64,000 bases of DNA from Escherichia coli (GTDB lineage: Bacteria; Pseudomonadota; Gammaproteobacteria; Enterobacterales; Enterobacteriaceae): the NCBI RefSeq assembly GCF_024223415.1, contig NZ_CP100500.1. One strand, 5' to 3'. The position numbers were made by a program. This document shows, piece by piece, positions 4,701 through 7,700 of the stretch. Position 1 is the first letter of the stretch, and the number at the start of each line of letters is the position of its first letter.

Positions 4701-7700
4701 CTCTGTAGCGAACGATAAAGCTGCCCTGATTGCGAAATCTCGCGATACCTTTATTCGTCTGCTGAACGCCACCCCGAACGGTGTGATCCGCAACTCCGAC
4801 GTGGCAAAAGGTGTGGTCGAAACCTCCCTGAACGTCGGTGTGGTGACCATGACTGACAATAACGTAGAAATTCACTGTCTGATCCGTTCTCTGATCGACA
4901 GCGGTAAAGACTACGTGGTGAGCATGCTGGATTCGCTGGGTAAACTGGCTGGCGCGAAAACCGAAGCGAAAGGCGCATATCCTGGCTGGCAGCCGGACGC
5001 TAATTCTACGGTGATGCATCTGGTACGTGAAACCTATCAGCGCCTGTTCAACAAGACGCCGAACATCCAGATTATCCACGCGGGCCTGGAATGTGGTCTG
5101 TTCAAAAAACCGTATCCGGAAATGGACATGGTTTCTATCGGGCCAACTATCACCGGTCCACACTCTCCGGATGAGCAAGTTCACATCGAAAGCGTAGGTC
5201 ATTACTGGACACTGCTGACTGAACTGCTGAAAGAAATTCCGGCGAAGTAATTATTTGATTTGCTGCCGGATGGCGTTTAATCGCCTTCCGGCAGTTTCAT
5301 CCTTCATTATCCTTCGATAAAAGCCATCCCTGTAAACGTTCGTCGCGGGTTGCCACGTTCAATCTGGTGATGGAACATTCGCCGCTGCGATTTCAGCGCC
5401 GCGCTATTTTCCTGTTGCTGCTGCTCCAGCTTCCAGGCAATCAGCAATCGCGCCAGCCGTTTGTTAGCATGCTGGCTGCGCTCTGACTGAACCTTCACGC
5501 TAATACCGGATGCCAGATGCGTGGCGCGTACCGCCGAGTCGGTTTTATTGACATGTTGACCGCCCGGCCCCGACGAACGCTGCGTCTCATACCGGATCGC
5601 ATCGGATTGCTCCTGCTCATCAGCGGTAAAACGCCCAATGCCCAGAAACCAGTTTTTGCGCCCATGATGAGGCCGATACGGACTCGGACAAATCCACTGA
5701 ATAGTGCCGCACCAACTTTCGCTTAATGCCCATGCGTTATCGCCATCCAGAGAAATCAGCGCCGAACGCAGCGTGTCAGAGTAGCGGCCCGTTTCTGTTT
5801 CCAGCACCGTTACCGCGACGTCTTGTCGGGCAAAAACGACCAACAGAGAAGAACGCTGCGCCAATCGGGTAGCCGCGTCCGGGGTGTAAATCTGGCATCC
5901 CCACTACGCGCTGCATGTTGGGTAAATTTGCCGTGGTGTGTAATTGTTGGATCGCTAAACTCTCGATCCACAGGTCATCAGATGCGATGGTAAATACCGC
6001 ATCGGATAAGGGACGAATATATTTGCCCATGTACCATTCCATTTATACTCGTCATACTTCAAGTTGCATGTACTGCGACTGCGTTCGTTCACCCCAGTCA
6101 CTTACTTATGTAAGCTCCTGGGGATTCACTCGCTTGTCGCCTTCCTGCAACTCGAATTATTTAGAGTATATAAATATAAAAATCAGGAAATGGCAGACGA
6201 ATCCAGGGCAAGAAAAAAAGAATTAATCCTGGAAAGGTCTGCAAAGAGTCATTGATAAAGGATTTGTCATGATTTACCTCCTTGCAGTTTGTGGAATAAG
6301 AAAACGCGCACATACCAGGCGGGCGTTATTTTCATTGCAAGCTGGATTTAATGTTGCGGTTTATATCGCATATAAAAATTAGTAAACCACGCTCCCCGGC
6401 ATTCAACGCGCTGCTGCTTAACTGTCTGAAAACCATAACGTTCAAAAAAGGGTTTTGCGGTTATGCTGGCGTCCACCGTAAGTTCGGATTCAGACTTAAT
6501 CACAGGTTTTAACAAAGCGCTGGCAACCCCACGGCGGGTGTATTCAGGGTCAACAAATAACATATCGATATAGTGTTCAACGCAGGTAATAAAGCCGACC
6601 AGTTTTGCATTAATGACTGCAACCCGCACTTGTGATTTCGCGAGTTTATCCTTCCAGCGAGATTCGTCAATCTGCGCCCAGGCGGCAATTTGTTGTGGTG
6701 AATAATGCTGACTGGCGGTCATCATAACCGCTCTAATGAAAATAGCGCATAGTTGCTGAAAATCGCCAGGCTGATAGTTTCTTATTTGTATGTTATTCAT
6801 AATCCCAGCACCAGTTGTCTTTCCATTTGCGGATCCAGCAACGTCACATGCAGCCCCACCAGTCGCACACCGCGCCCGCCGCGGCGTTCATCCCAGGTTT
6901 TACGCGCGGTGGCGATTAAGTCAGCTTTATTCAGCCGCGGCCAGACGTGCTCCTGGGTGGTTTGCTGAAAATCGTCGAACTTTAATTTCACCCCCTGGCG
7001 AGCAATCAGTAAATCAGGTTTTACCTTTGCCAGACGGCGTTCAAGTTCCGGATACAGCCGCTCGATAATCGCTTCACATTCAGACCAGTGATGAATATCT
7101 TCCGCCATCGTGCGTTCCACGCCGACGGATTTTCGTAACCGTTCGCTGTTAACGTCGCGCTCGTCAATCCCCTGACTACGCTCCCACAAAATGCGGCCAA
7201 ATTTTCCAAAGCGTTTAAGCAGAATCACCAGATCACACTTTTGTACATCACCGCAGGTCCGCAGCCCCATCGCTTCCAGTTTTGCCGCCGAGACTTTGCC
7301 GACGCCGGGGATTTTTGCCAGTGGTAAGGTTTGTAAAAATGCCGGAACTTCTGCCGGCGTAATCACAAACTGGCCGTTGGGTTTATTCATGTCGGAGGCG
7401 ATTTTGGCGAGAAACTTTACTGGTGCCACGCCCGCAGACGCCGTCAGTTGCAGCTCGCTGAAAATCGTCTGGCGGATTTCCTGGGCGATGAGGGTCGCAG
7501 AACCGTGGCAATGGACGCTGTCGGTGACATCGAGATAAGCCTCATCCAGTGACAACGGCTCAATGCGAGAGGTGTAGCGCGAGAAGATTTCACGGATATG
7601 ATTTGAGGCTTCTTTGTAGGCGTCAAAGCGCCCCGGAAGCAAGGTGAGATGTGGGCATAATTTGAGCGCCATCCCTGTCGGCATAGCGCTGCGTACGCCA

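Follow-up and report, generated by a model that had tools for sequence, protein, structure and literature searches.

We analysed a stretch of 64,000 nucleotides of Escherichia coli DNA (contig NZ_CP100500.1 of assembly GCF_024223415.1), called the window in the following, with respect to its dinB operon. In E. coli K-12 this operon has the gene order dinB-yafN-yafO-yafP, as a preliminary description of the same DNA had correctly stated. In the window, it consists of dinB and yafP only, and the toxin-antitoxin pair yafN-yafO (yafNO) is missing from between them. The features that define this two-gene allele are the following.

6797 to 7852, minus strand: dinB, encoding DNA polymerase IV of 351 amino acids; first gene of the operon (open reading frame list).
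6348 to 6800, minus strand: yafP, encoding a GNAT-family N-acetyltransferase of 150 amino acids; second and last gene of the operon in the two-gene allele (open reading frame list).
6797 to 6800, minus strand: ATGA, the overlap of dinB stop and yafP start (direct reading of the sequence).
6797 to 6803, minus strand: ATTATGA, present in a single copy (window junction aligned with the two junctions of the K-12 type).
7869 to 7884, minus strand: putative LexA (SOS) box CTGTATACTTTACCAG (exact match upstream of dinB).
7876 to 7903, minus strand: sigma-70-like promoter (TTCTCA, 16 nt, TATACT) upstream of dinB (consensus scan).

On the minus strand of the window, the dinB/yafP junction reads CTGGTGCTGGGATTATGAATAACATA (CTGGTGCTGGGATTATGAATAACATACAA in a longer extract). 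The dinB stop codon TGA (6799 to 6797) and the yafP start codon ATG (6800 to 6798) overlap within this ATGA. The preliminary description had placed the ATGA overlap at exactly this position and called the two genes fused; sequence and open reading frames bear out overlapping cistrons, but not a fused protein. DinB of the window is 99.4% identical to K-12 DinB at the amino acid level and matches the Pfam families IMS (E=6e-51), IMS_C and IMS_HHH, as expected of a Y-family DNA polymerase IV. YafP is 92.7% identical to K-12 YafP, occupies the same position between dinB and the rtcB remnant (rtcB') as in K-12, and matches Acetyltransf_10, Acetyltransf_7 and Acetyltransf_1 (GNAT, E=3e-19), as expected of a GNAT N-acetyltransferase.

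Searches of the whole 64 kb window gave no match to yafNO, neither with the K-12 YafN and YafO proteins (tblastn, best E-values 6.3 and 1.0) nor with the 759-bp K-12 yafNO segment (blastn). The K-12 YafN and YafO queries themselves match PF02604 and PF13957, and the arrangement that characterizes a type II YafN-YafO module, a Phd/YefM-like antitoxin gene followed by a YafO_toxin gene, was not found in the window. The earlier statements that yafNO is absent from the operon, and that no yafN or yafO homologue is present elsewhere in the interval, are therefore correct. E. coli AR_0085 (NZ_CP029741) is 100% identical to the window over the dinB-yafP stretch, and its RefSeq annotation has the same 4-nt dinB/yafP overlap, with the gene order yafQ, dinJ, yafL, rayT, lfhA', lafU, dinB, yafP, rtcB', prfH', pepD, gpt.

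To place the window allele within the species, 5,426 complete E. coli genomes were surveyed with three queries; 5,416 of them have a dinB-yafP locus. A 200-nt query centred on the junction is unbroken in 2,569 of the 5,426 genomes (47%) and splits into two halves in the others, and 2,847 genomes (52%) have the K-12 yafNO segment, always at the dinB locus and in a median of one copy each. The two counts add up to 5,416, i.e. to all genomes that have the locus. The sequence GGGATTATGAA is present at the junction in 11 of 11 two-gene alleles that were read. The two-gene state in the window is thus a real, common and ordinary allele, and the variability of yafNO that the preliminary description had proposed extends to the complete genomes of the species. 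An artefact, be it a mis-assembly or a yafNO copy elsewhere in the window, is practically out of the question, given the recurrence of the same junction in 2,569 complete genomes, the RefSeq annotation of the identical AR_0085 sequence, and the lack of YafN or YafO similarity anywhere in the window.

The polymorphism, the ATGA junction and both evolutionary readings have already been published. Gutierrez, Elez, Clermont, Denamur and Matic (2011, Nucleic Acids Res 39:4192, PMC3105422) described a two-gene dinB-yafP operon with ATGA overlap, present in 40-50% of E. coli, and attributed it to loss of yafNO. They reported that phylogroup A is mostly four-gene, B1 two-gene, and B2 and D mixed, and inferred at least three losses of yafNO through recombination between two ATGA sequences. 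The two-gene operon that they describe for E. coli CFT073 and UTI89 agrees with that of the window in gene pair, ATGA overlap, absence of yafNO and chromosomal neighbourhood. The opposite reading is found in the review by Fraikin, Goormaghtigh and Van Melderen (2020, PMC7167474), where yafNO is regarded as an insertion into an otherwise undisturbed dinB-yafP operon. The insertion and loss readings are not mutually exclusive. What is added here is modest: the flanking 7-bp repeat, empty sites that are collinear in E. marmotae and in other genera, and the finding that yafO varies little. It bears on the matter of insertion versus deletion without settling it.

Alignment of the window junction with K-12 accounts for the difference between the two operons. 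The nucleotide identity to the window is 98.2% for dinB and 96.5% for yafP, and lafU, rtcB', prfH', pepD and gpt flank the operon in both, but K-12 has an extra 759 bp, comprising the yafNO promoter/operator, yafN and yafO, between two copies of ATTATGA, where the window has one. Other two-gene alleles differ from that of the window by point polymorphisms only (94-98% identical). In four-gene alleles, the yafNO segment (the cassette) is 759 bp long and has the 7-bp direct repeat ATTATGA at both ends, with GGGATTATGA followed by TGTATAC at the left boundary and TTTATATTATGA followed by ATAACAT at the right boundary. ATTATGA is present on both sides in 9 of 9 four-gene alleles examined, including that of E. 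whittamii, so that the flanking repeat comprises 7 bp and not only the ATGA noted by Gutierrez et al. (PMC3105422). The single ATTATGA in the window is either the empty site or an excision scar. The signature that the preliminary description had suggested looking for was thus found, although it does not fix a direction: the pair has the form of the target-site duplication of a mobile element, but a microhomology scar would look alike, and a repeat that is expected from insertion is also usable by precise deletion.

Apart from yafN and yafO, the cassette has no genes. At its left end is the operator region, built from TATTATGTATA-like repeats with a period of 12 nt (L001:4098-4142), and the yafP start TATTATGAATA (L001:4856-4866) matches the TATTATGTATA-like motif at 10 of 11 positions. 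The G+C content of the cassette is 42-44%, as against 54% for dinB; that of yafP is also 43%. Decay of the toxin gene is common. Internal stop codons are present in yafO of 2 of 9 four-gene alleles (L002, which is the GTDB E. coli representative and of the four-gene form, and L106), and yafO is broken by an IS1 insertion in H71 (NZ_LR890606) and by a frameshift in L115 (pC27A-2). Escherichia sp. E1V33 (L003:5380-5450) has a three-gene operon, dinB-yafN-yafP, in which a deletion of about 375 bp has removed yafO alone across a TTAT microhomology, and retains yafN as an orphan antitoxin gene next to yafP.

Outside E. coli, a DinB scan was done with one genome per bacterial species, and the 80 best loci were classified; E. 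fergusonii, E. albertii and E. ruysiae are not among the loci listed. Within these 80 loci, yafP follows dinB at a distance of 2-27 nt, without yafNO, in Klebsiella pneumoniae, K. grimontii and K. michiganensis, as well as in five Citrobacter, two Pseudocitrobacter, Intestinirhabdus alba and three Atlantibacter, and most other genera have dinB without yafP. Kluyvera has the same tight dinB-yafP arrangement, also without yafNO. E. marmotae and contig L118 were recovered through YafP homologues, and the locus of a Yokenella YafP homologue lies outside the set. E. marmotae (L117:1449-2953) has the order lafU-dinB-yafP-rtcB, with the ATGA overlap GGGGTTATGAATAAC and intact rtcB and prfH, and its flanks are 91.5% (dinB) and 85% (yafP) identical to those of E. 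coli at the nucleotide level. In L118 (Logan SRR31920193, positions 130-260), a contig of the Escherichia clade, the dinB 3' end is 84-87% identical to that of E. coli, and the junction is dinB-TAA-ATAAT-ATG-yafP, followed by rtcB.

These junctions can be aligned without gaps (GGGATTATGAATAACATACAAATAAGA in E. coli, GGGGTTATGAATAACATATCAATAAGA in E. marmotae, GGGGTTATAAATAATATGCAACTAAGA in L118). E. coli, E. marmotae, L118, K. grimontii, K. michiganensis, Citrobacter L020 and Intestinirhabdus all have 11 nt between the dinB stop codon and the conserved Ile-Arg codons of yafP, and it is this equal spacing that makes the alignment free of gaps. The yafP start codon of L118 aligns with codon 4 of E. 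coli yafP (ATA), which is also the yafP start site in most other genera, and a single TAA-to-TGA change in a junction of the L118 type would create the ATGA start of E. coli. These alignments give the two-gene junction the appearance of the site before it was occupied, and the 7-bp repeat that of an insertion scar.

The four-gene form was found in E. coli, E. whittamii, Pseudocitrobacter vendiensis and related metagenomic contigs. In the P. vendiensis type, the order is nqrM-dinB-yafN-yafO-yafP-pepD (L009:5050-5830, L093:2650-3420). Its cassette has the same left boundary as that of E. coli (TGA followed by TGTATAC) and no flanking repeat, and its congeners without the cassette have a dinB end of CTCTAA rather than TTGTGA. 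Presence and absence of yafNO are thus polymorphic within Pseudocitrobacter as well (L009 and L093 versus L006 and L007). The enterobacterial contig L097 (Logan SRR32251491, positions 1-1300) has dinB-yafN-yafO followed directly by pepD, without yafP; upstream, it also has about 45 nt of operator-like sequence for which the E. coli cassette has no counterpart. One further candidate for a distant four-gene locus, L098 (Logan SRR27475577), was discarded as E. coli sequence with pervasive G-to-A changes, probably an assembly of chemically converted or damaged reads.

Relatives of the pair also occur away from dinB. YafO homologues that are 63-69% identical, each with a YafN-like partner, are found in many unrelated contexts (at least six), in some cases next to conjugation genes. 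One YafO-family protein recurs with identical sequence in four or more settings, twice next to TraD or shufflon genes; of the other relatives, some have a molybdo-oxidoreductase operon on one side and an ABC transporter on the other, and some are flanked by MAPEG and DUF72 genes near aspS. All YafO homologues of 74% identity or more are directly after dinB, and those away from dinB do not exceed 69% identity. The toxins of the YafO family on Klebsiella plasmids are all distant (32-37% identity). A genuine close plasmid-borne copy was not found, with the limit that only one E. coli "plasmid" match was opened (H113, pC27A-2), and not those of 100% identity; the copy in H113 turned out to be a chromosomal dinB segment with a frameshifted yafO.

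Together, the data suggest a model for the locus. The window carries the cassette-free two-gene allele of the dinB operon, and in our judgement it is probable that this operon is LexA-controlled, that yafNO began by insertion, and that the two states interconvert. According to this model, the tight dinB-yafP pair would be old in Enterobacteriaceae. The yafNO cassette would have been inserted where dinB and yafP already met in a tight ATGA-type junction, with ATTATGA left at either end. Occupied and empty states, which now coexist in Escherichia at roughly 50:50, may be exchanged by homologous replacement of the whole allele, and probably also by precise recombination across the 7-bp repeat. 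An insertion origin of yafNO, as favoured in the preliminary description, is the most likely one because tight pairs without yafNO are present in other genera, the junctions are free of gaps, the cassette is flanked by the 7-bp repeat, and relatives of the module reside in unrelated contexts. The window alone cannot show the polarity of yafNO gain or loss, and the data are compatible with an allele that never received the cassette as well as with one that lost it precisely.

Several observations weigh against this model and for a different history, the one published by Gutierrez et al. (2011), in which the E. coli ancestor had dinB-yafN-yafO-yafP, and the 759 bp were deleted precisely by slippage or illegitimate recombination between the ATTATGA copies. 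E. fergusonii has the four-gene operon, from which, by parsimony, an ancestral four-gene operon and at least three losses were deduced (PMC3105422). E. whittamii and the GTDB E. coli representative have four genes as well, and E1V33 has yafN. The cassettes of P. vendiensis and E. coli are 77-79% identical at the nucleotide level, like dinB (79-80%), and share the left boundary, in keeping with an old four-gene operon that was inherited vertically and then lost the pair many times. Suitable direct repeats are present in all four-gene alleles examined. Three flank haplotypes each occur with and without the cassette: for example, the last 360 nt of dinB are the same in two-gene L108 and four-gene L109, which have 2 differences in the 453 positions of yafP, and the pairs L107/L105 and L100/L102 behave similarly on the dinB side. 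As the same haplotypes occur in both states, the change must have recurred or moved by homologous exchange; a mechanism is known for repeated precise deletion between 7-bp repeats, but none for repeated precise insertion. Moreover, the AT-rich left end of the cassette contains four ATTATG motifs, making a chance 7-bp match less unlikely than a naive estimate would have it. Cassette distances rise with flank distances, and the TTAT-mediated deletion of yafO in E1V33 and the frequent decay of yafO (L002, L106, H71, L115) also suit a history of loss. On the other hand, E. marmotae has the two-gene ATGA form on flanks diverged to the level of species, the junctions of L118 and seven other genera are uninterrupted and gap-free, and the repeat still needs an earlier insertion. 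We regard secondary loss as slightly less likely than not as an account in its own right; since the earlier insertion is still needed for the repeat, it complements the insertion model rather than replacing it.

Gain and loss could also be the work of a site-specific mechanism, by which yafNO would enter and leave the dinB 3' end repeatedly, each time with a 7-bp target duplication. The flanking repeat would be in line with such an active cassette, and so would the position right behind dinB of all YafO homologues of at least 74% identity, which come from three lineages and include one from a genome that has no yafP, and the low synonymous divergence of yafO across species (see below). However, the 759-bp cassette has no terminal inverted repeats at its ends, no recombinase or transposase was found in it or near it, and P. 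vendiensis has no matching flanking repeat. Occurrence at multiple sites, as expected of a mobile element, was not seen either, as none of the 2,847 E. coli genomes with yafNO has a second site away from dinB, and no genuine plasmid copy was among those opened. We therefore deem an active mobile cassette very improbable. The same low credence is given to the more daring idea that yafNO is a recombinase-less mobile module with an affinity for the dinB 3' end that has repeatedly swept through Escherichia and related genera; if it were true, it would account for the same three observations, and the window would be an unoccupied target site.

Sequence diversity within the locus bears on both the loss and the mobility readings. 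The 21 alleles sampled are too few, and the locus is too mosaic, for the direction of change within E. coli to be read from them. Divergence was computed for the four-gene alleles L001, L099, L102, L105, L106, L109, L113, L002 and L004. For these alleles, including comparisons of E. coli with E. whittamii, synonymous divergence is 0.024-0.049 in yafO, 0.19-0.33 in dinB and 0.06-0.28 in yafP, so that yafO is 5-8 times below the flanks, even between species. In the alignment from dinB to yafP, this appears as a valley of nucleotide diversity over yafO (around positions 1404-1802). Between K-12 and E. whittamii, the tract of low divergence does not match the left border of the cassette, but starts inside yafN, and the first 200 bp or so of the cassette are as diverged as dinB. 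This mismatch speaks against the tract as a sign of cassette mobility; because the tract starts inside yafN, ordinary homologous recombination suffices for it. The low divergence of yafO may come from a recent spread of the toxin gene, from constraint on synonymous sites, or from flanks that are unusually diverse.

The two-gene arrangement also has consequences for the expression of yafP. The LexA box upstream of dinB is the single exact match to CTGTATACTTTACCAG in the window, with 0 expected by chance, and we take it to be the dinB SOS box of the LexA regulon. It overlaps the -10 element of the promoter-like site, which would make the operon a member of the LexA regulon. Published work has established SOS induction from the dinB promoter, and in K-12 yafNO has two promoters, the SOS-regulated dinB promoter and one directly upstream of yafN that is autoregulated by YafN (PMC2814082, PMC7781912). 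The internal promoter is absent from the window allele, because it resides inside the missing 759 bp, and yafP should therefore depend on the dinB promoter alone. The predicted promoter upstream of dinB should thus be the only dedicated promoter for yafP in the two-gene allele. Transcriptional linkage of dinB and yafP in the two-gene operon has been described by Gutierrez et al. (2011), and the 4-nt overlap in the window likewise points to co-transcription, presumably from the SOS promoter upstream of dinB.

The overlap at 6797 to 6800 is of the ATGA stop/start type that is characteristic of translationally coupled cistrons, and most likely the translation of yafP is coupled to the termination of dinB translation. 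Only a weak Shine-Dalgarno-like GGGA is located 2 nt upstream of the yafP start. Without yafNO and its YafN-autoregulated promoter, yafP expression would follow that of dinB alone. Gutierrez et al. (PMC3105422) suggested that YafP synthesis "probably requires translational frameshifting"; we think that ordinary coupling by termination and reinitiation is the more usual reading of an ATGA overlap.

The surroundings of the operon contain further features, including a second toxin-antitoxin locus, dinJ-yafQ, the presence of which had also been noted in the preliminary description.

7923 to 8708, minus strand: lafU, part of the Flag-2 remnant.
8674 to 10392 as annotated, 8620 to 10392 in the open reading frame scan, plus strand: lfhA, a truncated flhA-like pseudogene, part of the Flag-2 remnant.
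10608 to 11105, minus strand: rayT, gene for a transposase associated with repetitive extragenic palindromes (REP), located after lfhA.
12341 to 12601, plus strand: dinJ, antitoxin gene (open reading frame; Pfam RelB, E=3e-34; RefSeq annotation).
12604 to 12882, plus strand: yafQ, toxin gene and partner of dinJ (open reading frame; Pfam YafQ_toxin, E=1.5e-32; RefSeq annotation).

A RelB-family antitoxin gene immediately upstream of a YafQ toxin gene is the arrangement of a type II DinJ-YafQ module. The remnant of the Flag-2 lateral flagella cluster spans 7923 to 10392. On the other side of the operon, rtcB' (5827 to 6030, minus strand) and prfH' (5307 to 5813, minus strand) are remnants like those of K-12; a full-length rtcB stands beside yafP in strains L100, L101 and L104, and in E. 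marmotae.

The variable presence of a toxin-antitoxin pair between two cistrons is not peculiar to dinB and yafP. In the case of relA-mazEF-mazG versus relA-mazG, a type II pair is likewise variably present, and the bicistronic operon is intact without it; that case, discussed in the 2020 review (PMC7167474), concerns another locus and another toxin-antitoxin family. The dinB operon is a clean example of a toxin-antitoxin pair inside a host operon. About half of E. coli is without yafNO, and for annotation K-12 should not be taken as the norm of the species. For the interpretation of SOS and toxin-antitoxin phenotypes, it matters that in two-gene strains yafP would be tied to dinB alone.

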